This document shows positions 1 through 19,211 of a DNA stretch of 21,511 bases, one piece after another. Source of the DNA: Pseudomonadota bacterium (lineage in GTDB: Bacteria; Bdellovibrionota; FAC87; UBA2466). How positions within the stretch are numbered: position 1 is the first letter of the stretch; each line of letters opens with the position of its first letter. The stretch is taken from positions 1 to 21,511 of the forward strand of contig JAYUGC010000176.1 in assembly GCA_043767805.1 (NCBI GenBank), in the 5' to 3' direction. The position numbers were made by a program, and so were the translations under genes. The notes beneath the pieces are model-generated. The model saw only the letters and a list, made by a program, of their open reading frames with translations. It did no database searches and was not told the DNA's origin.

Positions 1-747
1 CAAGGCGCCGAAGGTCAGGTCGTAAGTGGATCTCGTCGCTAGGCCGTCGGCGAAAGTGTCCGCGCGGTCCAAATGGATCCGCTCTCCGCGGTGCCAAGAG
101 TCGTGCGAGGCCGCAGCTCCGGCGGCCTGCACTCCGTAGACTTTGAGCGAAGGCCGCAATTGGCGCGCGGCCACGATGGCTCCCACCGCCTGGGAACCGC
201 CGCCCACCGCGACGACGATGGCGTCTAGGTCCGGAACATCCTCGAGCATTTCGAGAGAAAGAGTGCCCGCACCGGCGAGAACATGTTTATTGTTAGTCGA
301 ATGAATTTCCTGAAGGCCGTGCTTCGCCGAGAGCTCCTTCATTACCAAGACAGCTTCGTCGTAGTCTTTTCCCTGCTCGATGAGCTTTGCGCCGAGCGAA
401 CGAATACCAGCGTTCTTCTCGGGATTATTCCCCTTCGGCACACAGATCGTTACCGAAATGCCGAGGAGCTTCCCCGCAAGCGAGACGCCAAGCCCGTGAT
501 TGCCGCGAGTCGCCGCGATGACTCCTCTTTTTCGATCGGCTTCGGAGAGCGCGGTCATGACCGACAACGCATTGCGTACCTTGAAGGCGTTGGTTGGGAG
601 GTGGTTCTCGTGTTTTACCCAAACGCCAGCGTGGCTGCCGACGGCTTCATCCAGTTCCGGATACCTGCGAAAGGCGGTCCGTTTCAAATAAAGAGAAAGT
701 CTCTCCCGCGCCGCCTGGATATCTTCGAACGAGATAGGAAAGTTCAT
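1..747 (-). CDS. PLP-dependent threonine/serine dehydratase (fold type II); 3' end lies outside the window
   Basis: Not in the ORF track; translated by hand from ATG at 747 (ATGA overlap with the thiQ stop): MNFPISFEDIQAARERL...VWVKHENHLPTNAFKVRNA...GVIAATRGNHG...VAVGGGSQ. PLP-lysine motif AFKVR, TRGNHG motif and Gly-rich phosphate loop. Confidence 0.9.
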   Translation of the reverse strand, partial: MNFPISFEDIQAARERLSLYLKRTAFRRYPELDEAVGSHAGVWVKHENHLPTNAFKVRNALSVMTALSEADRKRGVIAATRGNHGLGVSLAGKLLGISVTICVPKGNNPEKNAGIRSLGAKLIEQGKDYDEAVLVMKELSAKHGLQEIHSTNNKHVLAGAGTLSLEMLEDVPDLDAIVVAVGGGSQAVGAIVAARQLRPSLKVYGVQAAGAAASHDSWHRGERIHLDRADTFADGLATRSTYDLTFGAL

Positions 748-1451
748 AAGGTGCCAAAAAGAGTTTCGCGCAGTTTAGGATCGTCGAGATTCATACCTCT
801 CGGGTCCGCGGCCCACATCACCTTTCCCTCGGAAAGGCTGATCGCCTGATCCGCGAGCTCCTTCAAGTCCTCGATGAAATGACTGACGAGCAAAGTGCAG
901 GTTTTCGATTCGGTCACGAGGTCTCTTAGCTTCTGGCGAAGCGAAGCGCGCGTGGACGGATCGAGCGCGGAGAAGGGCTCATCCAAAAGCAGCACGGGAA
1001 AGCGCACGGCCAACGCCCGGGCAATGCCCACTCGCTGCGCTTGTCCGACGGAAACTTCGTGCGGGTAGCGGGCGGAAAGCTCACCAATCTCTAGCCGTTC
1101 GAGCCAGTCTTTCGCCTGCTTTCGTCTCTCGGTCTTACTGACCTTCTGAATCATCAAGCCGTACTCGACGTTCTCACTCACCGTGAGATGAGGAAAGAGC
1201 GCGCCGCGCTGAAAAACCATCGCCATGCGCCGCTTCTCGGGCGGGAGCGGTGTCAGATCGAGAGCTCCATAAGTCACCGTGCCCTGAGACGGCGTGATGA
1301 AGCCCGTCATCGCATTCAAAAGCGTGGTCTTACCCGAGCCGCTTCGGCCAAGAAGGCAAGTGATAGTGCCGGGCTCGAGCTCGAGTTTGGGAACGGTTAC
1401 TTCGAATCCGCCGACTCTAGCCCTCAGATACTCAACTTTGAGCGCGGACAT
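744..1451 (-). CDS. thiQ: ABC transporter ATP-binding subunit, ThiQ-like
   Basis: Walker A GRSGSGKT, Q-loop VFQ, signature VSVGQ, Walker B LLLDEPFS, H-loop VSH; follows thiB/thiP-like genes. Confidence 0.8.
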   Translation of the reverse strand: MSALKVEYLRARVGGFEVTVPKLELEPGTITCLLGRSGSGKTTLLNAMTGFITPSQGTVTYGALDLTPLPPEKRRMAMVFQRGALFPHLTVSENVEYGLMIQKVSKTERRKQAKDWLERLEIGELSARYPHEVSVGQAQRVGIARALAVRFPVLLLDEPFSALDPSTRASLRQKLRDLVTESKTCTLLVSHFIEDLKELADQAISLSEGKVMWAADPRGMNLDDPKLRETLFGTL

Positions 1452-3003
1452 GATCTTCCTCCAAACGGCCGATTCCCCAAAAGAGCGAGGCCATCATCAC
1501 GAGCAGAAGCAAAGCCGCCCCGTACGCTTCCGAAAACTGATAGCGGCCCATCAAACGAAAAATCCAAAGCGGCAACGTCTCATTGTCTTGTCCCAGAAAG
1601 AGCAGAACGGCTCCCACTTCCCCCAAAGAAAAGGAAAGCGCCATGACCAAGCCGAGACCGAGCGTGCGCTTTAGCAAGGGTAACTCTATCGTCGTCAGAA
1701 TCTGCCACGTCGAGGCGCCGAGGGAGGCCGCCGCCGGATAGAGTGCAGCGGGCACCCGACGAAACCCGTCTTGTAGCGTGCGAAAGACCAGAGGCAGCGC
1801 GATGGTCCCTTGAACGATAGCCGCCGGAATCAAGCTGCCCCGAAACCAATCCTGCTTCTCTTTAAGGAGCACGACCCAACCCACGGTGAGGAGCAGAGTC
1901 GAAACCGAAACAGGAAAATTTGCGGCGCCCCCGAGCCACGCCCGAAATGCAGCGGGCTTTCCGCGATGAGCGCCATAGGCCAAGGGCAAGGTAAGTCCGA
2001 GGGAAAAACCACACGCCAGAAGGCCGAGCTTTAAGGATTGCAGAGCCGCGCGCGCTAAAACCCCGTAATCCAAGCTTCCGAGAGAGCGGCCGCCCTCCAC
2101 AACGAGCCCGACGATCGGCACTCCCACTAGAAGGGTAAGGCCCACACCCAAGAGGGCGAGCCAAACGTTGCCGAGCCGATACAGGGGAAACGAGGCCGAG
2201 CGCGCTTCCGCAGGCCGCGGCCCCTGACGGAGAAACGCTACGTACAAAAGGCCCGAGACCACGGCTTGAATCGCGGCAAGACGAACGGCGAGCGCGAGAT
2301 CGAACTCGATTTTGACCGCCTGGTAGATAGCGACTTCCAAAGTCGTGAAACGAGGGCCGCCTCCCAAAAGGAGTACGATGAGAAAGCTCGACGCGCAGTA
2401 AAGAAAGCTCAAGACGAAAGCGGTACGAATCTCGGGAAGGATCCGCCGGAGCGTAATCGTAAAGAAACAATGGACCCGGCTGGCGCCCAGCGACAGCGCC
2501 GCGCGCTCGGGCTCTCGTTCTGTTTCCCCAAGCGCCGTGCCGACTGCTTTTAAATAGAGCGGGAAATTCAAGAAGACGTGACCGAGTAAAATGCCGGGCC
2601 AGCCGTACAAGAGGCCAGGCGGCAAAAAGCGGCCGAGCCATCCCGATTGGCCCCAGATGCCGAGCAGTCCCAAAGCGACCAGAAGTACCGGCAAAGCGAA
2701 GGGTAATAGCGACAAACGCCACAGCGTTTCACGCCCGGGAAAGCGCATCTCGCTATAGACGAGCGCGGCCCCGATGCCGACGAGGCCCGACAAAACGGCG
2801 CTTACCAACGCCTGCCCATAAGTGAAGCCGAGAATATGGAGGAAAAAGCCCTGGCTCCACGGCGCTTCTCCCGGAGGCGTCCCGAGTGCGCCGATTACGA
2901 GACTCGCGACCGGCACCACAAAGACGGCCACAAAACCGACGAGCGCCGAAACGCCGAGGACGGTCGGAAGCGGGCTTTTCGCCTCGACTCCCGGAGCGCT
3001 CAT
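1432..3003 (-). CDS. thiP: ABC transporter permease, ThiP-like (two fused permease domains)
   Basis: Many TM helices with two EAA-type loops (ERAALSLGAS, YPAAASLGAS); LYGWPGILLGHVFLNFP and LLLGGGPRFTTLEVAIYQA are typical of ThiP. Start moved to the ATG at 3003 (ATGA overlap with the thiB stop). Confidence 0.85.
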   Translation of the reverse strand: MSAPGVEAKSPLPTVLGVSALVGFVAVFVVPVASLVIGALGTPPGEAPWSQGFFLHILGFTYGQALVSAVLSGLVGIGAALVYSEMRFPGRETLWRLSLLPFALPVLLVALGLLGIWGQSGWLGRFLPPGLLYGWPGILLGHVFLNFPLYLKAVGTALGETEREPERAALSLGASRVHCFFTITLRRILPEIRTAFVLSFLYCASSFLIVLLLGGGPRFTTLEVAIYQAVKIEFDLALAVRLAAIQAVVSGLLYVAFLRQGPRPAEARSASFPLYRLGNVWLALLGVGLTLLVGVPIVGLVVEGGRSLGSLDYGVLARAALQSLKLGLLACGFSLGLTLPLAYGAHRGKPAAFRAWLGGAANFPVSVSTLLLTVGWVVLLKEKQDWFRGSLIPAAIVQGTIALPLVFRTLQDGFRRVPAALYPAAASLGASTWQILTTIELPLLKRTLGLGLVMALSFSLGEVGAVLLFLGQDNETLPLWIFRLMGRYQFSEAYGAALLLLVMMASLFWGIGRLEEDHVRAQS

Positions 3004-4025
3004 GGACGAATACCGGAAACAACCGACGTCCAATCCTTGAGCCATTCGTTTTTCTTTTTCTGGACTTCGGAAACGTCGGCGACAAGCACCTTACTGACGG
3101 GAGGCAATTTCTTGAAGCTCTCGGGCAGCTCCGTGCCGAGGCGCGCGGGATACATCCACTGGTGCAGCGGGATGCCCTTTTGGACTTCGGCGGAGAGAAG
3201 CGTCTGCATCCACTTTCTCGCCCAATCCTTGCGCACGGAATGGGTGACGACCGCGGCGGCTTCCGTTTGCCGGTAGTTGCCTTCCGGAAAGAGCAGCGCG
3301 CGGATGTTCTCCCGCTTTTCTTTTTCGACGTGGTACGCGGGGCTCGTCGTGTAAGACACCACGAACTTTGCCTCGCCTTTTAGGAACAAGCCGTACGTTC
3401 CGGACCAACCCGGGGCGATGGTCAGAATCTGTGAGGAAAGCGCCTTCCAAAACGAAGAGGCTCCTTCCCCGAACGCGAGCCGCGTCCAGACAAGAAAGCT
3501 CATGCCAATGCTGGAAGTGCGAGGGTCCTGCATCGCCAAGCTCTTTTTAAATTTCGGATCGGCGGCGAGCTCCTTCAAAGAGATTCCCGCCGGCACGTTG
3601 GTACGCAGGCTGTCGTACAAAATGGAAAGGTAGCCGTAATCGAATGGCACGAACTGGCCTTCGGCGTCGAATTTAAGCTGAGGATCGAGTCCTTGCATGA
3701 GCTCGGGCGGCGCTTTGTCGAAGGCGTGCAGATCACGCGCGCGGCCCAAAAGACTTTCGTCGATGCCGAGAAGGATGTCCGCTTTGGTCGCCTTGCCTTC
3801 GAGAGCGATCTGATTGAGCGCTTCGCCCTCGGTCGGAAATCCGACGAAGCGGCAGTCTCCCGAGTATTGCTTCTTGAACTCGGCCTTAATCAGCTCGGCG
3901 AGCGAGCCTTTCCCGGTGAACGCATCGTAAGCGTAGACGACGACTTCTTTGGATGGCTTTGGTGCGGCGTCAGCGACGGCCGGAAGCAGAGCGATTAGCG
4001 GGAGGAGTAGCAACGTCTTCAGCAT
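3000..4025 (-). CDS. thiB: Thiamine ABC transporter substrate-binding protein (ThiB/TbpA)
   Basis: Signal peptide; VYAYDAF, PFDYGY, QDPRTSSIG, PGWSGTYGLFLKGE, VSYTTSPAYH and QWMYP motifs of ThiB; AGGAGG upstream of the ATG. Confidence 0.9.
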   Translation of the reverse strand: MLKTLLLLPLIALLPAVADAAPKPSKEVVVYAYDAFTGKGSLAELIKAEFKKQYSGDCRFVGFPTEGEALNQIALEGKATKADILLGIDESLLGRARDLHAFDKAPPELMQGLDPQLKFDAEGQFVPFDYGYLSILYDSLRTNVPAGISLKELAADPKFKKSLAMQDPRTSSIGMSFLVWTRLAFGEGASSFWKALSSQILTIAPGWSGTYGLFLKGEAKFVVSYTTSPAYHVEKEKRENIRALLFPEGNYRQTEAAAVVTHSVRKDWARKWMQTLLSAEVQKGIPLHQWMYPARLGTELPESFKKLPPVSKVLVADVSEVQKKKNEWLKDWTSVVSGIRP

Positions 4026-9462: not shown

Positions 9463-10710
9463 ATGAGCGCTCTGATTTATCAATCCGGCGAGGCGTTTTG
9501 CGAAGGGGTTGCCCTCTCTCGCATCGCTTCTGAAGTGGGTACCCCCACGTACGTTTATTCCCGGGCGGCTTTGAAAAAAGCGGCTCGCTCCCTGAAAGAG
9601 GCTTTCGCGAGCCACCCCACCCTTCCCTGCTACGCGGTGAAGGCGAACGGCAATCTTTCGGTGCTCAGAGAGATTTTCGCGGAAGGCTTCGGCGCGGACG
9701 TCGTCTCGGGCGGCGAAATGGACCGAGCTCTGGCGGGCGGCGCCAAAGCCGAAAAGATCGTCTTCTCGGGCGTCGGCAAAACCAACGACGAAATGGCTCG
9801 GGCCTTGAAAGCCGGCGTGATGAGCTTCAACGCGGAATCCCTGGATGAGATCGACCGCTTAGCGACTGTCGCGCGCGGTCTCGGTAAGACCGCGTCCATC
9901 TGCCTTCGCATCAATCCGAACATCGACGCCAAGACGAACCCCTACATCGCGACGGGCCTCTACACGACGAAGTTCGGCATCGCGGAAAGCGACCTTCCCG
10001 CGGCCCTCGATCTCGTGCGCGCGCGCAAAGAAATTCGCCTCCTCGGTCTCGACTGCCACATCGGTAGCCAAATCACCGAGATCGGCCCTTTCGCTGAAGC
10101 AGCGCGGCGCATGGCGGATCTTTCCATGAAAGTGAAGGCGCAAGGCTTTGCTCTCGAAGTCATCGATCTCGGCGGAGGCCTCGGCATCCGTTATGACGAC
10201 GAGGAACCGCCGTCGATTCAAGCTTACGCGGAAGCGGTGCTCGCCGCGGTCAAGCCCACGGGACTGAAGCTCATCCTGGAGCCCGGCCGCTGGCTCGTCG
10301 GTAATGCCGGCCTCATCGTAACCCGGGTCGTTGGCACAAAGCGCACGCCCGCGAAAGCGTTTTTGATTGTCGACGCGGCCATGAACGATCTTATGCGCCC
10401 CGCCCTCTACGAAGCGTTTCACGGCATCAAGCCCGCGAAGGAAAACGCCTGGTCCGGAGAAAATGGCGACGTCGTCGGTCCCATCTGCGAGAGCGGAGAC
10501 TTTCTCGCCAAGGACAGAAAACTTCCGGAGGCGAAAGCCGGCGATCTTCTCATCGTGGAATCTTGCGGCGCTTATGGTTCCTCGATGGCGTCTCGGTACA
10601 ATTGCCGCGCGCTCGGCGCCGAAGTCCTGGTCGATGGCGCGAACTTCAAGGTGGTCCGTCCTCGCGAGACGGTCGAAAGTCAGTGGGAATCGGAAAAGCG
10701 CCTGCTATGA
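9463..10710 (+). CDS. lysA: Diaminopimelate decarboxylase
   Basis: GTPTYVYS, PLP-lysine YAVKAN, HIGSQ, DLGGG, EPGR, RPALY, VVGPICESGD, GAYG. Confidence 0.96.
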   Translation: MSALIYQSGEAFCEGVALSRIASEVGTPTYVYSRAALKKAARSLKEAFASHPTLPCYAVKANGNLSVLREIFAEGFGADVVSGGEMDRALAGGAKAEKIVFSGVGKTNDEMARALKAGVMSFNAESLDEIDRLATVARGLGKTASICLRINPNIDAKTNPYIATGLYTTKFGIAESDLPAALDLVRARKEIRLLGLDCHIGSQITEIGPFAEAARRMADLSMKVKAQGFALEVIDLGGGLGIRYDDEEPPSIQAYAEAVLAAVKPTGLKLILEPGRWLVGNAGLIVTRVVGTKRTPAKAFLIVDAAMNDLMRPALYEAFHGIKPAKENAWSGENGDVVGPICESGDFLAKDRKLPEAKAGDLLIVESCGAYGSSMASRYNCRALGAEVLVDGANFKVVRPRETVESQWESEKRLL

Positions 10711-11939
10711 ACGGCGTCGTCGTTCAGAAGTATGGCGGCACGTCCGTTGGCTCCCCCGAGCGCATCAAGGCCCTCGCGGCCCGCGTGGCTCGTCAGTACC
10801 GGGAAGGCTTACGTCACAACGCGGTCGTGGTCAGCGCCATGTCGGGCGAGACGAATCGGCTCGTTGCGCTCATGCGCCAGGTGAACCCGGCCGCTTCGGC
10901 CCTCGCCTACGACATGGCGATTTCCGCCGGTGAGCAAGTGAGCGTGGGTCTCGTCGCCGCCGCCCTCGAAGGCGAAGGCATTAAAGCGATTCCGCTCCTC
11001 GGCCATCAACTGGGCATCCTGACCGACAGCGCGCACTCCCAGGCGCGCATTCAATCCATTCAAAGAGAAATCATCGACGAAGCGTGGGACAACGGCGCCA
11101 TTCCCGTGGTCGCGGGCTTTCAAGGGGTGACCGACGAGAACGCGATTACCACGCTCGGTCGTGGCGGCAGCGATACCAGCGCCGTGGCTCTCGCCATCGC
11201 GCTCAAAGCGGATTTCTGCGAGATCAATACGGACGTCGACGGCGTGTACTCCGCCGATCCCCGATCCGTCCCCGAAGCGAGGCATCTCGCCCGCCTCGAT
11301 TACGACACGGCTTTGGAGATGGCTTCGTTGGGCAGCAAGGTTTTGCACCCGCGCTGCGTGGAGCTCGGCTCCAAGTTTCGCATGCCTATCGTCGTCAGAA
11401 GCAGTTTCGATCCGGATTACGCCAGGAGAACGTGGATTATGAACTATACGCCGCAAGAAGTTTTGGAAACGCCGGTAGTCACCGGGGTGACCGTGGCGAA
11501 AGACGTGGCCCGTCTCACGGTAGAAGGTTTCAGCCGCGAGGCTCCCATCTTGAAAGATCTTTTCGCGGTAGTCGCCGAAGCTTCCATCAACGTAGACGTC
11601 ATCGTCCACGATCGGCATTCCGAGGGGCATTTGCAATCGGTGGGCTTTACGGTGCCTGCGGAAGACGTCGCGAAAACCTTGGCGGCGGTCGAGCCCTTGA
11701 AGTCTCGGCCCGAGTACCAGGCGCTCACCATCACTAAACAAACGGGTCTCGTGAAAGTTTCGGCCATCGGCGTGGGCATGCGTAGCCACTCGGGCGTCGC
11801 GAGCCGCGCCTTCGCCGCTCTCCAGGACAACGGTATTCCGATTCTCATGGTAACGACCTCCGAGATTAAGATCTCTTGCGTCGTTCCCGACGATCTCGCC
11901 GATAAAGCGGCGCGCGTGCTTCACTCGGAATTCTGCTAA
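10707..11939 (+). CDS. lysC: Aspartate kinase with two ACT domains
   Basis: True start is the ATG at 10707 (ATGA overlap with lysA): VVQKYGGTSV, VVSAM, AGFQG, TTLGRGGSDTSAV, TDVDGVY..DPR, TSEIKIS. Confidence 0.96.
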   Translation: MNGVVVQKYGGTSVGSPERIKALAARVARQYREGLRHNAVVVSAMSGETNRLVALMRQVNPAASALAYDMAISAGEQVSVGLVAAALEGEGIKAIPLLGHQLGILTDSAHSQARIQSIQREIIDEAWDNGAIPVVAGFQGVTDENAITTLGRGGSDTSAVALAIALKADFCEINTDVDGVYSADPRSVPEARHLARLDYDTALEMASLGSKVLHPRCVELGSKFRMPIVVRSSFDPDYARRTWIMNYTPQEVLETPVVTGVTVAKDVARLTVEGFSREAPILKDLFAVVAEASINVDVIVHDRHSEGHLQSVGFTVPAEDVAKTLAAVEPLKSRPEYQALTITKQTGLVKVSAIGVGMRSHSGVASRAFAALQDNGIPILMVTTSEIKISCVVPDDLADKAARVLHSEFC

Positions 11940-11941
11940 AG

Positions 11942-12862
11942 GTGGCGCGCCGTGCCCTCGTTCTTGGCTCCGGTGTCATCGGGCTGACCACGGCCGTAGT
12001 GCTTGCGGAAGCCGGATGGAAAGTGAACGTGTGGGCCCGGGAGTTTCCGCCCGACACCACTTCCGATCTCGCCCCGGCGCTTTGGTATCCCCATAAGCTC
12101 GAGCCTTTAGAAGCGACTCGTCGCTGGGCCTTGGCCTCGCTTAGTGAATTTCAGCGGCTGGCCGAAACGCCCGACGTTACGGGTGTTCGGCTGGTGCCCG
12201 GCCATAAATATTTTCACCGGCCCATGGGGCCTCCTTGGTGGGCGTCTCATGTCGACAGCTTTCGGCTTTTGGGCTCGTCGCAGGTTCCTGAAGGATGCCG
12301 CGCGGGCTATGCGTTCACGCTTCCCGTCGCCGACATGTCTCGTTACCTGCCTTATCTTCAAGCGCGCCTTCGCCTGGCGGGAGGTCGGTGGGAAAAGAAA
12401 TTCCTCACTTCTTTCGAGGAAACCCAAGGCGTCGCAGACGTGGTTCTCAATTGCACGGGCCTCGGCGCGAGGGAGCTGGGAGACGGGACAGTCTTCCCGA
12501 TTCGGGGACAGGTTTTGCGGGTTCCCAAGCTCGCCAAAGAAGAAATTTTATTGGACGACGATAATCCCGAAGGAATGATCTACGTCATTCCTCGCTTTGA
12601 CCAGGCTATCGTCGGAGGAAGCACCAAGCCCCACGACGAAAATCTCCAACCCGATGAGTCGGAATCAAACGCCATTAGGCAGAGAGCGTCCCATTATTTC
12701 CCCGGCCTGGAAGCGGGATCCGCCCAAGTCGGTCTCCGGCCGGGGCGTCCCGTTGTTCGCTTGGAAAAAGAAGGCCGTCTCGTGCATTGTTACGGCCACG
12801 GAGGCTCCGGCGTTTCGCTTTCCTGGGGCTCCGCGCGTGAGGCCGCGGGCCTAATCGATTGA
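11942..12862 (+). CDS. D-amino acid oxidase family FAD oxidoreductase
   Basis: GSGVIG Rossmann motif, NCTGLGA, PIRGQ, YVIPR, GLRPGR, HCYGHGGSGVSLSWG: classic DAAO features. GTG start 2 nt after the lysC stop. Confidence 0.9.
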   Translation: MARRALVLGSGVIGLTTAVVLAEAGWKVNVWAREFPPDTTSDLAPALWYPHKLEPLEATRRWALASLSEFQRLAETPDVTGVRLVPGHKYFHRPMGPPWWASHVDSFRLLGSSQVPEGCRAGYAFTLPVADMSRYLPYLQARLRLAGGRWEKKFLTSFEETQGVADVVLNCTGLGARELGDGTVFPIRGQVLRVPKLAKEEILLDDDNPEGMIYVIPRFDQAIVGGSTKPHDENLQPDESESNAIRQRASHYFPGLEAGSAQVGLRPGRPVVRLEKEGRLVHCYGHGGSGVSLSWGSAREAAGLID

Positions 12863-14940: not shown

Positions 14941-15137
14941 TTCATGGACTTTCTGATCTCGTCTAGCTCGCCCACGTTTTTCGCCGTGGACTGAATGTTC
15001 GTTTGCGGGCTCGTGATGTGGCCTTCCACCACTCCGATTAAGCCGCCGACCGCATCGATTTGGCTCTTGGTCGGCTGAGAGAGTTGAACGAGCTCATTTG
15101 AAACCTCCGGGCGAGACTCTAGTTCAGTAGGTTCTGT
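14937..15137 (-). pseudogene. Startless coiled-coil-like reading frame; possible gene remnant
   Basis: Open frame ...ELESRPEVSNELVQLSQPTKSQIDAVGGLIGVVEGHITSPQTNIQSTAKNVGELDEIRKSMN* with no start codon at its 5' end; fills the intergenic gap. Confidence 0.3.
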
Positions 15138-16089
15138 CTAGGCAAAGGTGCACAAGCCCCGCTAGGGCGTCTCTGGTAACGGAGGGAGGCATTTCTTTAA
15201 GCCAACTTTCGGTCCGCGCCGCTTTTTGAGCGAGCTCGGCCCTCGCCGGCGCGTCTTCCTCGCGCTGGGCCGCTTTGGTGAAAGCGGCGACTAGCTCGGG
15301 CCCAACGGTTTTTTTGGCGAAGTCCTTTTCCGTTCTCTTCCTCAGATCGGGATTGGCCATCACCATTTTCCACGTCACCCAGTTGAGCTTTCCTTCCCGC
15401 AAATCGCTCCAGCGCTCTTTCGTGGGACAACCGTGCACGTCGAGTAAATCGTCCGAGAACTGAAAGACGGCGCCGAACCCTTCCAAGAACTCTCCGACCG
15501 CCGCCAAGGATACCGTAGGCCTGAGGAGTGGCCCTACTTCACCAGCCCACCTAAGCAGTGAGGAGGTTTTCAACCGGCTGATATCGAAGTAGATCTGCTC
15601 TCGCAAGGGAATCTTGTAGCGAGTTTCGTATTGTAGGCACTCGCCTTGAGCGAGATCTTTCACCGTCCGGCAAAGCCGCCGGAGAATTTCGATATTTCCA
15701 GCGAGCGCCACCTGATGGATGGCGTCGCTGAAAAGGTAGTCTCCCGCGAGGACGGGCAAAGTATTGTCGTAGAGGGCGTTGGCGGAGGGCTCTCCCCTCC
15801 TGACCTCCGATTTATCGACCACGTCGTCGTGCAGAAGGCTTGCGGTATGAATCGCCTCCGCGGCCCACGCATAGGTCTCCAACTCCGTCTCGGGCACGCC
15901 GCACATCTCGCCGAACCAAAAAACGAGGCGCGATCTGAGTCGCTTGCCTTTGCGCTCCCAAAGCGCGCCGCAGATGTCTTCGACCAACGCCACTTCCGGG
16001 GGCGAAATAGGTCCGCTCACCCGATCGAGCTTATCGACGAAGGAAGCTGATTTACTAAACGCCGAAAGCACCGCCGCAGAAGGGCTCAT
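15124..16089 (-). CDS. Long-chain trans-polyprenyl diphosphate synthase (IspB/HepT-like)
   Basis: GKRLR, FARM IHTASLLHDDVVD..RRG, AGDYLF, GE..Q, KT, SARM FQFSDDLLD, DLREGK. Ala at position -5 of the FARM indicates a long-chain product. ATGA-coupled to the menA-like gene. Confidence 0.92.
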   Translation of the reverse strand: MSPSAAVLSAFSKSASFVDKLDRVSGPISPPEVALVEDICGALWERKGKRLRSRLVFWFGEMCGVPETELETYAWAAEAIHTASLLHDDVVDKSEVRRGEPSANALYDNTLPVLAGDYLFSDAIHQVALAGNIEILRRLCRTVKDLAQGECLQYETRYKIPLREQIYFDISRLKTSSLLRWAGEVGPLLRPTVSLAAVGEFLEGFGAVFQFSDDLLDVHGCPTKERWSDLREGKLNWVTWKMVMANPDLRKRTEKDFAKKTVGPELVAAFTKAAQREEDAPARAELAQKAARTESWLKEMPPSVTRDALAGLVHLCLDRTY

Positions 16090-16904
16090 CGAAAGACCTC
16101 CGAGTAGAGAACGACAAGCGCTCCCACGCCAACTACCTGAGAGGCTCCAACCAAGATGGACTTAGGCTCGATACGCGCCGAGGTCACTCGCCAGATAACG
16201 ATGGCTCCGCAGAGCAGCATCACCAATTTCGGCCCGTGCGCGAGGCAAAGAAAGACGAGGGCTGCCGCGAAAAGAAGTTTCGCCGTCGAAGCCGCCGCCC
16301 GAGCCCCGTGACGAACGGCAAAAGACTGTTTGCCCGCCAGAGAATCGGTCAAGACTTGGGGAGGTTGATGCGAGAACAAAATGGCGACGGAAAGAAGCGC
16401 ATACGCGGCGATTAGCGCGAGCCCGGTCAGGTCCATTCGTCCCATCGCGAGCCAGTAAAGACAGCCCGCCACTCCCGGTCCGTAACAAAGACCGGTCGCC
16501 CACTCGCCGAGCGCGCTGTAGGAAAGCGGCTTTTTCCCGGCGTTATAGGAAATGCCCAAGGCAACTAAGGGCAAAGCGAAGTAGAGGAGGCTCGCTCGTC
16601 CGGCGCCAAAAACGGCGACTAGTCCGACGAGCACTCCCACGGCTGCGGACACCCAGCCGTGGCGTGAAGCAATTTTGAGGTTGCCCTGGTGAAAATGGAT
16701 CCAGGAATCGCTCTTCTCGACATCCGCGCCTCGTCGCCAATCGGTCACGTCGTTCAGCACGTTGATGCCGTGCTGAAGGAGGATGACTCCCGCCCCCGCC
16801 AGAAGCACCCAGCCGCCATTTCGTCCGGAAGTCAGGGCCAATACCGAGAGAACGGGCAATAGCGACACGAGGTAGATGGGCGGATTTAGGGTTTTCCAAA
16901 ACAT
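16086..16904 (-). CDS. menA: UbiA-superfamily prenyltransferase, MenA-like
   Basis: Multi-TM; NDVTDWRRGAD (MenA NDxxDxxxGxD), YNAG..PLSY.ALGE, D..AGKQSFAVRHG. Confidence 0.8.
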   Translation of the reverse strand: MFWKTLNPPIYLVSLLPVLSVLALTSGRNGGWVLLAGAGVILLQHGINVLNDVTDWRRGADVEKSDSWIHFHQGNLKIASRHGWVSAAVGVLVGLVAVFGAGRASLLYFALPLVALGISYNAGKKPLSYSALGEWATGLCYGPGVAGCLYWLAMGRMDLTGLALIAAYALLSVAILFSHQPPQVLTDSLAGKQSFAVRHGARAAASTAKLLFAAALVFLCLAHGPKLVMLLCGAIVIWRVTSARIEPKSILVGASQVVGVGALVVLYSEVFR

Positions 16905-16913
16905 AGTGAGAAT

Positions 16914-16937
16914 CGGCGGCCCCCGAAGGGGCCGCCG
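16914..16937 (-). other. Very stable GC hairpin with a cUUCGg tetraloop between the di-iron gene and menA
   Basis: Minus strand reads CGGCGGCCCC-TTCG-GGGGCCGCCG (perfect 10-bp stem); no U-tract; 9 nt before the menA ATG. Confidence 0.75.
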
Positions 16938-16946
16938 CTCCGATGA

Positions 16947-17501
16947 TTAAGAGGCCATGCGAGCGACTTGCACTTCGGTCAGGGCTTGCTGAAACCAGAG
17001 CGCGTGAGTGCGCTCGGAATCAATGACCCGCTGATAGACGCCGGCTGCTTTGGAATTGCCGGCAGTCAGCGCCTCGTCGCGGAAACGGGGATAAATGTCC
17101 TGGAACTCGCGGGTCTCGACGCGGATGGCGACTTTCAGGGCGTTCTCGATGACCTGCTCCGCGTTCATCGCGATGAGACGGTCGGAGTGCGCCTGAATTT
17201 CGGTGAGCGCCGCGGTCGCCCGCGTGGTCTCCTCGCCCGCCTCCGGGCTACCGAGCTCTTGATACAGCTCTCTGAGCCAGATGGAGTGGAGCTTCTCTTC
17301 GCCCGCCACCTTCAAGAAGAGCTCGGCTACTTTGGGATAGCCCGCCTTCTTGGCCCAGCGCGCGAACTCCGGGTACATGACTTTGTTCTCGTACTCTTCC
17401 ACGTCCACGAAGGACTTCGCCGTGGCTTCCCCGTCACTACCGGACTTAGCCGCCGCGAAGCATTCGAAGATCATGTCTTCGGTGATTTGCTTTTGGTCCA
17501 T
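16947..17501 (-). CDS. Ferritin-like di-iron protein of the rubrerythrin superfamily, symerythrin-like, without rubredoxin domain
   Basis: Start at ATG 17501 (AAGGAG 6 nt upstream), 184 aa. Two symmetric halves: E35xxE38...MYP...E69xxH72 and E129xxE132...IYP...E163xxH166. No CxxC motifs. Confidence 0.85.
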   Translation of the reverse strand: MDQKQITEDMIFECFAAAKSGSDGEATAKSFVDVEEYENKVMYPEFARWAKKAGYPKVAELFLKVAGEEKLHSIWLRELYQELGSPEAGEETTRATAALTEIQAHSDRLIAMNAEQVIENALKVAIRVETREFQDIYPRFRDEALTAGNSKAAGVYQRVIDSERTHALWFQQALTEVQVARMAS

Positions 17502-17515
17502 GGTCATCTCCTTGG

Positions 17516-17569
17516 TTTCTGTACTTTCAGTATATTCTGAAACATCCGAAAGTACAGAATACCCAGAAG
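17516..17569. promoter_or_regulatory. Operator-like array of six phased 9-bp units with nested palindromes (candidate GbsR-family binding site)
   Basis: TTTCTGTAC|TTTCAGTAT|ATTCTGAAA|CATCCGAAA|GTACAGAAT|ACCCAGAAG. Perfect 12-bp IR TTCTGTACTTTC (17517-28) / GAAAGTACAGAA (17548-59); inner TTTCAG-N6-CTGAAA (17525-42). Confidence 0.75.
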
Positions 17570-17579
17570 CCAATGTCAA
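17551..17579 (-). promoter_or_regulatory. Sigma70-type promoter for the di-iron/menA/prenyl synthase operon
   Basis: Perfect TTGACA (17579-17574) with a weak -10 candidate TGTACT at 17 nt spacing; the -10 lies inside the operator array. Confidence 0.45.
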
Positions 17580-17602
17580 GGGACCGTGCTATGCCTTGGG
17601 CC

Positions 17603-18274
17603 ATGGTGGAACTGCCCTTCAGCCGCATCGCGGCTCAATACGATCGACTCAATGGCGTGCTCTCGCTCGGCACGCACGCGCTCTGGAAGAGAAAGCTCGT
17701 GCACACCATGCTCCGTTTACAGCCGCGGCCCGAGCGAGTTCTCGACGTCGCCACGGGCACGGGTGAAATCGCGCACCGCTTCTCGCGGAAAGTGCCCGGC
17801 GCGGAAGTCATCGGCCTGGACCCTTGCGCGGAAATGATCGAGGTGGGAAAAGCGAAGGGACGCAAGGCCAAGTGGATCGTCGCGGGCTCGGAGCGCATTC
17901 CGCTTCCCGATGAAAGCGTCGATATCCTCACCTGCGCTTTCGGCGTGAGAAACTTCACGGAGAGGCCGCGCGCCTTTCGCGAATGGGCGCGCCTCTTGAA
18001 ACCCAGCGGCGTGGTAGGGGTCATCGAAATCCATCCCATCCCCCGCGTTTGGTACCGCCCGCTCCTCGCCTTCTATTGGAAACACCTTATGCCGAGGCTC
18101 GGACGGCTACTTGCCGAAGAGAAAGCCTATCGGTACCTGAGGGACTCCACCGTCGGCTTTCTCTCGGCCCCCGCCATGGTGGAAGAGGCCCGGCTAGCCG
18201 GTCTCGAGTCTTTAGAGACCCGCTCCCTTTTTGCCTCCGGTATGGTAAGTTTCTGCCTTTTCCGGAAGCCATGA
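17603..18274 (+). CDS. menG: Demethylmenaquinone/ubiquinone C-methyltransferase (MenG/UbiE family)
   Basis: FSRIAAQYDRLNGVLSLGTHALWKR, SAM motif VLDVATGTG, AFGVRN, LKPSG, AYRYLRDS. Start at 17603 is preferred (17591 or 17573 are possible). Confidence 0.88.
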   Translation: MVELPFSRIAAQYDRLNGVLSLGTHALWKRKLVHTMLRLQPRPERVLDVATGTGEIAHRFSRKVPGAEVIGLDPCAEMIEVGKAKGRKAKWIVAGSERIPLPDESVDILTCAFGVRNFTERPRAFREWARLLKPSGVVGVIEIHPIPRVWYRPLLAFYWKHLMPRLGRLLAEEKAYRYLRDSTVGFLSAPAMVEEARLAGLESLETRSLFASGMVSFCLFRKP

Positions 18275-18813
18275 GTCAGGAAACCGAAACCTCAATGACC
18301 GAAGAAGAAATCGCGTTCTCCGAGATCATCGGAGATCTCGTGGAGCAGCTCGGTTTCAAGCGCCACCTCGGCCGCATCTGGTCCCTCATCTTTTTGCGCC
18401 CCGAGCCAGTGAGTCCCACCGACATTCAGACGGAGCTTTCGCTCAGCGCCGGCACGGTGAGCTCCGCTCTAGCCGAGCTGCAGACGTGGGGCGTAGTAAA
18501 GCGCATCCGCATCGCCGCCGATCGTAATTTCTATTACGAAGCGGATGTGCAGATCTGGCGCTCGGTCAGTAACGTGCTGCGCACTCGTGAGCTTCGGATT
18601 TTGGAAGAGGCCAGCGCCGGGCTCGCCGGACTCGCGACTTCCTTGGAAAAGCGCTCCAGTGCCAACGCCTCCTTTCAAATTAAGCGCGTGAAGCACGTAA
18701 GAGAGTCGGTCGATACGGCGACCCTGCTGTTCACCCACCTAGTCTCCCCCTCGCCTTTGAATCTAGTGAAGATGAATAAACTTTTTCAGCGCCTTAAGAA
18801 CATCAACCTTTAG
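18271..18813 (+). CDS. GbsR/MarR-family transcriptional regulator
   Basis: Start at ATG 18271 (ATGA overlap with menG); GFKRHLGRIWSLIFL.PEP...DIQTELSLSAGTVSSALAELQTWGVV...R.FYYEA.VQIW is a GbsR-type winged-HTH pattern. Confidence 0.85.
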   Translation: MSQETETSMTEEEIAFSEIIGDLVEQLGFKRHLGRIWSLIFLRPEPVSPTDIQTELSLSAGTVSSALAELQTWGVVKRIRIAADRNFYYEADVQIWRSVSNVLRTRELRILEEASAGLAGLATSLEKRSSANASFQIKRVKHVRESVDTATLLFTHLVSPSPLNLVKMNKLFQRLKNINL

Positions 18814-18822
18814 AGGGATGCC

Positions 18823-19211
18823 ATGATCGATCACACGGGCTTGAAAGTTAAGGATCCGAAGAAGAGCCGGCAGTTCTACGAAAAAGCGCTAGCCCCTCTC
18901 GGGTACGAAGTCCTGATGGAGATTCCGAAGGAATATACGGGCGGGATGACGGTGCTGGGCTACGGCGTTAAGCCCAGCCGGATTTTTGGACCTCGGAAGG
19001 CACACCCAATGAGCCCCGCATTCACCTCGCCTTCCGGGCCGATACTCACGCTCAGGTCGATGCGTTCTATAAGGCGGCTCTCGCGGCGGGCGGAAAAGAC
19101 AACGGTCCCCCGGGCCCTCGCCCTCACTATCACAAAGACTACTACGGGGCCTTTCTGCTCGATCCCGACGGGCATAACATCGAGGTCGTGTGCCATTGCG
19201 AAGTTAAGTGA
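18823..19211 (+). pseudogene. VOC/glyoxalase family protein, frameshifted (1-nt deletion near 18976)
   Basis: MIDHTGLKV...FYEKALAPLGY...GYGVKP continues in a second frame as PDFWTSEG...HLAFRA...VDAFYKAALAAGGKDNGPPGPRPHYHKDYYGAFLLDPDGHNIEVVCH, stop TGA 19209-19211. Span is 389 nt (3n+2). The ORF-track C-terminus is spurious. Confidence 0.85.

Follow-up and report, generated by a model that had tools for sequence, protein, structure and literature searches.

A conserved gene pair encoding a symerythrin-like di-iron protein and a distinct MenA-related prenyltransferase, embedded in a candidate quinone cassette of Bdellovibrionota

The DNA analysed in this work (the window) is the whole of contig JAYUGC010000176.1, 21,511 nucleotides from a Bdellovibrionota genome rated 100% complete (assembly GCA_043767805.1). 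It harbours a divergent five-gene cassette at positions 15124..18813, which a preliminary description had proposed as a quinone module. Open reading frame (ORF) analysis found all five genes at the coordinates given there, and family matches confirmed the kinds of gene. The leftward arm (minus strand) encodes a trans-polyprenyl diphosphate synthase for the tail (15124..16089), a UbiA-family membrane prenyltransferase of 272 amino acids (16086..16904) and a symerythrin-like single-chain di-iron protein of 184 amino acids (16947..17501). The rightward arm (plus strand) encodes a MenG/UbiE C-methyltransferase (17603..18274, or starting at 17591) and a predicted GbsR/CydE-type repressor of the MarR fold (18271..18813). 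Two junctions are 4-base ATGA overlaps (16086-16089 and 18271-18274). The 101-bp shared control region of the preliminary description holds with menG start 17603, but start 17591 reduces it to 89 bp; a further alternative start, 17573, would overlap the -35 box. The five genes were identical across three public DNA runs of one study, and the window DNA was present in sediment metagenomes of one study. No RNA run was among the public runs listed as carrying it, which has no bearing on expression.

A leftward sigma-70 promoter (TTGACA, 17 bases, TGTACT; 17551..17579, minus strand) was predicted ahead of the di-iron gene, TTGACA being present in 10 of 13 intergenic regions; a generic promoter scan returned 0 sites and did not call it. 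A predicted repressor operator, TTTCA-N8-TGAAA (17525..17542), lies between this promoter and the di-iron ribosome-binding site, within a perfect 12-bp inverted repeat (17517-17559). The palindrome was present in 19/19 Bdellovibrionota loci and recurred at most 2 times per 2000 base shuffles of the 13 intergenic regions. Its score was the highest genome-wide (35.0 vs. 21.4 for the next); the two next-best sites fell inside unrelated ORFs, and no operator-like site scored near the host cydAB. The regulator matched PF12802 above cut-off (E 2e-6) and NF047500 weakly (20.5 vs. 218 bits), and was 45-66% identical over near-full length in the cassettes of relatives. The footprint of CydE, the GbsR-type repressor of cytochrome bd, contains the same palindrome (PMC6096048; of this and the other articles cited here, the statements refer to the accessible parts). 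The repressor of the preliminary description is joined by a predicted, CydE-like operator that adjoins the di-iron gene in all 19 loci. Judged from sequence, a CydE-type repressor likely sits on this palindrome and would repress the di-iron gene. The operator was absent upstream of 27/27 proteobacterial di-iron copies, which are without the regulator; FNR-like boxes preceded just 2 of these 27, which we do not count as evidence. A GC hairpin with a UUCG loop and no U-tract (16909..16941, minus strand) separates the di-iron and prenyltransferase genes. Its folding energy (-28.3 kcal/mol, z -4.4) was matched by 0/200 shuffles in the window, and it may act as an mRNA stabiliser or attenuator.

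The best PDB match of the di-iron protein was symerythrin (3sid/3qhb, E 2e-23, residues 15-176), with sulerythrin reaching only 4e-8. The subfamily is compact: E35, E38, E69, H72, E129, E132, E163, H166, F15, V128 and C14 were invariant in 178/178 homologues (rows of at least 170 residues; one shorter row of 179 was left out). In the alignment to symerythrin, F15 corresponds to F17 and V128 to V127. We take the six Glu and two His residues to match the eight symmetrically placed metal ligands of symerythrin, and the Phe/Val pair to match its autogenerated cross-link, and the invariance of the Val-Phe positions hints at an oxidising chemistry. The 184 residues contain no C-terminal rubredoxin domain and scored 57 vs. 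200 bits against NF045767, so that the protein does not classify as a two-domain rubrerythrin; nor did it match a Coq7 family in Pfam or NCBIfam. The preliminary description had expected a functional clue for the symerythrin family. Such a clue was obtained for this new subclade, but one cyanobacterial-type symerythrin locus, with only 563 bases of DNA upstream, showed no prenyltransferase, which restricts the clue to the subclade; a second locus was too short to be informative. The gene downstream of that cyanobacterial-type symerythrin is presumably argC-like. No tested function was found in the accessible parts of the open literature mentioning symerythrin, which is plastid-encoded in glaucophytes (PMC6330054).

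The prenyltransferase belongs to the UbiA superfamily (PF01040, 65.5 vs. cut-off 34.2 bits). Its predicted model (pLDDT 95.9) has the UbiA fold, with TM scores of 0.56-0.69 to UbiA-family structures. The best NCBIfam matches were all MenA models, none of them at cut-off (70.6/225, 64.6/264 and 43.5/102 bits), and UBIAD1 was the only significant PDB sequence match of the clade profile (E 9e-7). In a tree of 29 rows, including 11 of the 78 clade members, the protein fell in a long-branch clade (support 100/99), sister to the MenA rows and outside the E. coli MenA clade, although the support of the deep node was only 85/70. The first Asp-rich motif, NxxNDxxD...GxD, was intact in 76/78 homologues. 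Motif II, by contrast, was HQPPQxxxD in 72/78 (NNxRDxxxD in MenA), with the last Asp retained. Of the 78 homologues, 65 were readable at the N-terminal RP, and in these its arginine was exchanged for N, Q, D, H or S. Mutation of the E. coli MenA Asp equivalent to AfUbiA D198 abolished activity (PMC4106721); human UBIAD1 D236A remains active (PMC4398444). The enzyme, first described as MenA, is MenA-like with a UbiA fold, but it belongs to a separate clade, and its altered motif II indicates that it is not a plain MenA; two MenA-conserved residues are replaced, so that 1,4-dihydroxy-2-naphthoate (DHNA) cannot be assumed to be its acceptor. From the motifs, it is probably active but different from MenA. 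No member of the clade was found in plasmid or phage collections. A complex prediction of the di-iron protein with the prenyltransferase scored 0.00, and was counted neither for nor against an interaction.

The polyprenyl synthase matched PF00348 (E 3e-47; first DDxxD at residue 88) and scored below every cut-off in an NCBIfam profile search. MenG/UbiE exceeded the TIGR01934 cut-off (196.9 vs. 158.35 bits) and is the sole strong UbiE homologue of the host genome. The synthase, translationally coupled to the prenyltransferase, is the dedicated tail enzyme of the cassette, and MenG is co-inherited.

Conservation of the cassette was analysed in the phylum and beyond it. The di-iron gene was present in 19/251 phylum genomes, namely 18/38 of the host order and one in another order. 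The five-gene order and orientation was kept in 18 other genomes (16 complete, 2 cut by contig ends). A species-genome scan gave 32 di-iron loci, of which 29 belong to Gamma- and Betaproteobacteria (e.g. Thiobacillus, Chromatiaceae, Sedimenticolaceae). The prenyltransferase gene lay directly downstream of the di-iron gene in 25/32 loci (tblastn); in the remaining 7/7 it was found at another place in the same genome. The linkage of the di-iron gene to a MenA-like gene, on which the preliminary description staked its module, thus crosses phyla. The five-gene module as a unit is conserved in the Bdellovibrionota, but only the two genes are shared between phyla: the conserved unit is the di-iron/prenyltransferase pair, to which the Bdellovibrionota have added three further genes. 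The module is real and cross-phylum, and apparently undescribed.

The two genes also went together almost without exception across genomes of Bdellovibrionota and of sulfur-oxidising Gamma- and Betaproteobacteria, although the genomes compared are related and often incomplete, so that the following counts cannot be treated as independent. Both genes were present in 12 of 28 same-order relatives and neither in the other 16. A gammaproteobacterial order of 54 genomes gave 21 with both and 31 with neither, the 2 singletons lying at contig edges. An even sample of that class had the di-iron gene in 5/401 genomes and the clade prenyltransferase in 6/400. Another 31 genomes of the class sample had only weaker, ordinary MenA-type matches, and none of them had the di-iron gene; the four examined by tree grouped with E. 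coli MenA. That the two genes occur so strictly together speaks for a role of the di-iron protein in a pathway, and the near-perfect two-way dependence suggests that the product of one protein is the substrate of the other. The sixth clade carrier (L139:4944-5048) retained just a C-terminal di-iron remnant upstream of an intact prenyltransferase gene, reflecting decay or an assembly error. Another locus had a duplicate pair flanking an nqr operon (L141:5093-6183 and 15790-17264), with one prenyltransferase copy truncated. An ordinary MenA gene adjoining a UbiE-type gene, with no di-iron partner, was observed in Betaproteobacteria (L080, L081, L084) and likely represents plain DHNA salvage. Cultured species among the named di-iron homologues were Thiosocius teredinicola and Porticoccus litoralis.

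Quinone-linked genes lay within 8 kb in 23/29 proteobacterial loci, a count that has no random baseline: NrfD (11), NqrA (9), Sqr (8), PsrA/PhsA-like (5), START protein (2), and hydrogenase, NosZ and UbiE (1 each). A second ubiE adjoined the pair in 2 proteobacterial genomes, and a Coq10/RatA-like START gene was near the pair in 4 loci. Polysulfide and thiosulfate reductases draw on menaquinol, and their presence as neighbours favours a low-potential product. Several Chromatiaceae/Sedimenticolaceae loci (L026, L030, L034, L059-L061, L063, L066) had the di-iron gene apart from the prenyltransferase gene, with NrfD/Psr neighbours in three; the prenyltransferase neighbours there are, we presume, aminopeptidase-like and isomerase-like. 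A type III sulfide:quinone reductase (selenoprotein subtype model) was next to the pair at L025:5697-6983.

The preliminary description noted no ring-synthesis genes in the window, and none was found there or genome-wide: no men or mqn gene was detected. Specifically, the host had no MqnA or UbiD, and its MenD and MenB matches were far below cut-off. The MenD match was acetolactate synthase, and the MenB, MenE and MenF matches were weak (22-30% identity) and were read as paralogues. E. coli protein queries found no menC, menH, menD, ubiA, ubiC, ubiH, ubiI, ubiJ or ubiTUV in the host, negatives of limited reach because the E. coli MenA query missed the MenA-like gene of the window itself. The same queries gave two UbiB-like kinases (~30%). 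Three UbiA-family genes were found in the host: heme O synthase, the window gene and one sub-cut-off gene. The last is divergent (L004, G000:C65:22719-26429) and is flanked by two ORFs which we take to be PEP-utilising enzyme-like and AMP-dependent ligase-like. No other quinone prenyltransferase was identified in the host. The genome encodes complex I, a succinate dehydrogenase-like complex and cytochrome bd, so the host is able to use a quinone; it also has chorismate synthase.

The lack of detectable ring-synthesis genes extended to other genomes. MenB and MqnA were each found in 0/55 genomes (the same 41 carriers and 14 non-carriers), and MenB in 0/5 further carriers. Cassette-less relatives of the host order appear to respire without a known quinone pathway, those tested having neither MenB nor MqnA; the cassette would seem to be an optional gain in a lineage without any known quinone route. 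Fifteen of 20 such relatives (G003, G005, G006, G010, G012, G017, G019, G023, G025 and others) had one UbiA-family match, which, judged by score, is probably heme O synthase. The five proteobacterial carriers tested all kept ubiA (5/5), so the pair adds something to ubiquinone, and its product is probably not ubiquinone.

A VOC/glyoxalase-type gene (18823-19210, plus strand) directly follows the repressor gene and is frameshifted near 18975, its two frames making up one typical protein; the frameshift was unchanged in one covering public contig, which may be the source sample. Positions 744-4025 (minus strand) encode what is presumably an ABC transporter resembling thiamine uptake, and positions 9463-12862 (plus strand) a run that we take to be lysA, aspartokinase and D-amino-acid oxidase genes; both are ordinary.

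We consider it possible, though short of probable, that the pair converts a scavenged head group of naphthalene type into a respiratory quinone of low potential and menaquinone type. The di-iron protein would be a dedicated oxidase that either readies this head group or completes it. The polyprenyl synthase would make the tail, which is the established function of its family, and the membrane prenyltransferase would join it to the head; joining is the family function, and the acceptor is our prediction. The di-iron site, using O2 or peroxide, would supply an oxidative step that a plain MenA does not need. Candidates are the addition of the second ring oxygen or, if the head is a degraded naphthoquinone, the loss of an amino group, a carboxyl group or a side chain. 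MenG, by its family function, would methylate the product. Resident IspB and UbiE would handle the tail and methyl steps in Proteobacteria, which would explain why only the pair is carried there. In this lineage of Bdellovibrionota, a CydE-type repressor would occupy the palindrome that separates the promoter of the di-iron gene from its ribosome-binding site. Salvage as first proposed agrees with the genome-wide absence of ring genes and with the linkage, but DHNA is not a given substrate and the prenyltransferase clade is distinct. Menadione, the other head group suggested in the preliminary description, would not need MenG for its salvage, yet the cassette has MenG.

Several points weigh against this salvage and oxidation scheme. 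An O2-dependent step fits poorly with anaerobic-respiration neighbours, and the 8-kb neighbour counts have no baseline of chance. Characterised rubrerythrin-family proteins are peroxidases (PMC3317640). In the alignment, the prenyltransferase clade has neither an Asp at the position of AfUbiA D198 nor an Arg at that of R22, and the linked genes include no transporter for scavenging the head group. The men/mqn absence is lineage-wide: the 14 non-carriers are without both too, so it is not specific to carriers. Moreover, the carriers are kin and not independent, the genes are apart in seven loci, and one genome has an additional, unpaired di-iron copy. The case is gene-based, with substrate, product and chemistry all predicted.

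A somewhat unlikely alternative is ordinary salvage of DHNA to menaquinone by the prenyltransferase and MenG without help; the di-iron protein would then be a peroxidase, perhaps fed by quinol, that clears the H2O2 formed when naphthoquinols meet air. Its ligand set is rubrerythrin-like and intact, a single-domain rubrerythrin is a peroxidase (PMC3317640), and the stress oxidase cytochrome bd is under the control of CydE-type repressors; furthermore, Lactiplantibacillus plantarum reportedly takes up DHNA without ring genes, and DHNA induces H2O2 there (PMC10746273). A peroxidase, however, should serve ordinary menaquinone makers and move alone. The di-iron gene was not found in the 31 genomes with only ordinary MenA-type matches, nor without the clade prenyltransferase except at a contig end, and orphan pairs of ordinary MenA and UbiE genes occur without it. 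The altered prenyltransferase active site would also be left unexplained. That altered site, in which two conserved diphosphate/Mg residues are replaced, and the sub-cut-off MenA scores are what might be expected if the product were not a respiratory quinone, or if the membrane protein had no catalytic role and served as a subunit that binds or anchors the di-iron protein. We judge this quite improbable, given that motif I is intact in 76/78 homologues, the tail synthase is translationally coupled and MenG is co-inherited.

Rather unlikely, in our view, is a de novo shortcut, in which an endogenous benzenoid would be prenylated and the di-iron enzyme would hydroxylate it, oxidatively decarboxylate it or close the second ring. 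The gene logic parallels the ubiquinone and plastoquinone routes, which prenylate, oxygenate and then methylate. Chorismate synthase, complex I and cytochrome bd in the host, together with the lack of another identified quinone prenyltransferase, are compatible with it, but no head-group supplying gene is linked and the clade stands nearer to MenA and UBIAD1 than to UbiA. Thiogranum longum was reported to contain MK-8(H4)/MK-9(H4) while having neither known pathway (PMC13386864, Text S1). Metagenome-assembled genomes labelled Thiogranum sp. encode the di-iron protein; T. longum, however, was not among the named di-iron homologues, and the authors doubt the identity of the culture (PMC13386864). 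Doubtful to a like extent is the broader claim that these two enzymes open a third route, without men/mqn, to menaquinone or to a new low-potential quinone, with symerythrin as a C-H-activating oxygenase. Homogentisate was considered as a general head group and excluded, because HPPD was found in 18/18 Bdellovibrionota carriers but in only 1/43 proteobacterial carriers. Hitch-hiking of unrelated genes that were fixed together once and then inherited is hardly credible: both subfamilies are tight and rare, which is compatible with one origin, but the pair has been maintained in two phyla and in many different gene surroundings, and neither gene is lost where the two lie apart.

A survey of 26,264 genomes reported that no quinone pathway could be detected in many lineages, and noted four species that contain menaquinone yet have no pathway for it (PMC13386864). 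If true, a two-gene shortcut would be invisible to screens that demand a quorum of genes, and could alter how sediment sulfur oxidisers and Bdellovibrionota are scored for low-potential electron chains. A third route, if real, would explain menaquinones in sulfur oxidisers such as Thiogranum that are without known pathways. One symerythrin subfamily also gains a specific partner, symerythrin being a protein with a solved structure and an unusual self-oxidation chemistry. The cultured T. teredinicola and P. litoralis, as sources of di-iron homologues, make the proposed salvage and oxidation testable.

Compared with known systems, the di-iron protein is closest to symerythrin of Cyanophora paradoxa (PDB 3qhb/3qhc/3sid), likewise a single chain without a rubredoxin domain, with the eight ligand positions and the Phe/Val pair aligned. 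The window protein nevertheless represents a separate subclade, ~33% identical to a Gloeobacterales-type homologue, with a clade-specific, invariant Cys14 and a tie to the prenyltransferase that the one cyanobacterial-type locus did not show. Coq7 catalyses ferritin-like di-iron oxygenation within a quinone pathway and, with other quinone hydroxylases, offers a possible analogy, although the window protein has a rubrerythrin-type ligand set. UBIAD1, the vitamin K2 synthase, also prenylates a salvaged head and tolerates the loss of D236, but it retains NNxRD, which the window clade does not, and its head, menadione, is already methylated; UBIAD1 is not known to have a di-iron partner. The operator TTTCA-N8-TGAAA falls inside the CydE footprint, but CydE governs cydAB, while the predicted window repressor would govern a quinone cassette; the accessible part of a GbsR survey mentions no quinone context. 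No description of the pair, the prenyltransferase clade or a GbsR-type quinone regulon was found in the literature searched, including the accessible parts of PMC11707229 and PMC6207618, a search that mostly did not extend to subscription papers. The DHNA salvage of L. plantarum and other quinone auxotrophs likewise uses finishing genes, MenA and MenG, without ring synthesis, but with an ordinary MenA and, in the accessible part of the report, no di-iron partner (PMC10746273), whereas the window enzyme belongs to a long-branch sister clade with a changed motif II and a constant partner. Salvage by MenA and MenG is thus already known; what is apparently undescribed is the di-iron partner and the altered prenyltransferase clade.

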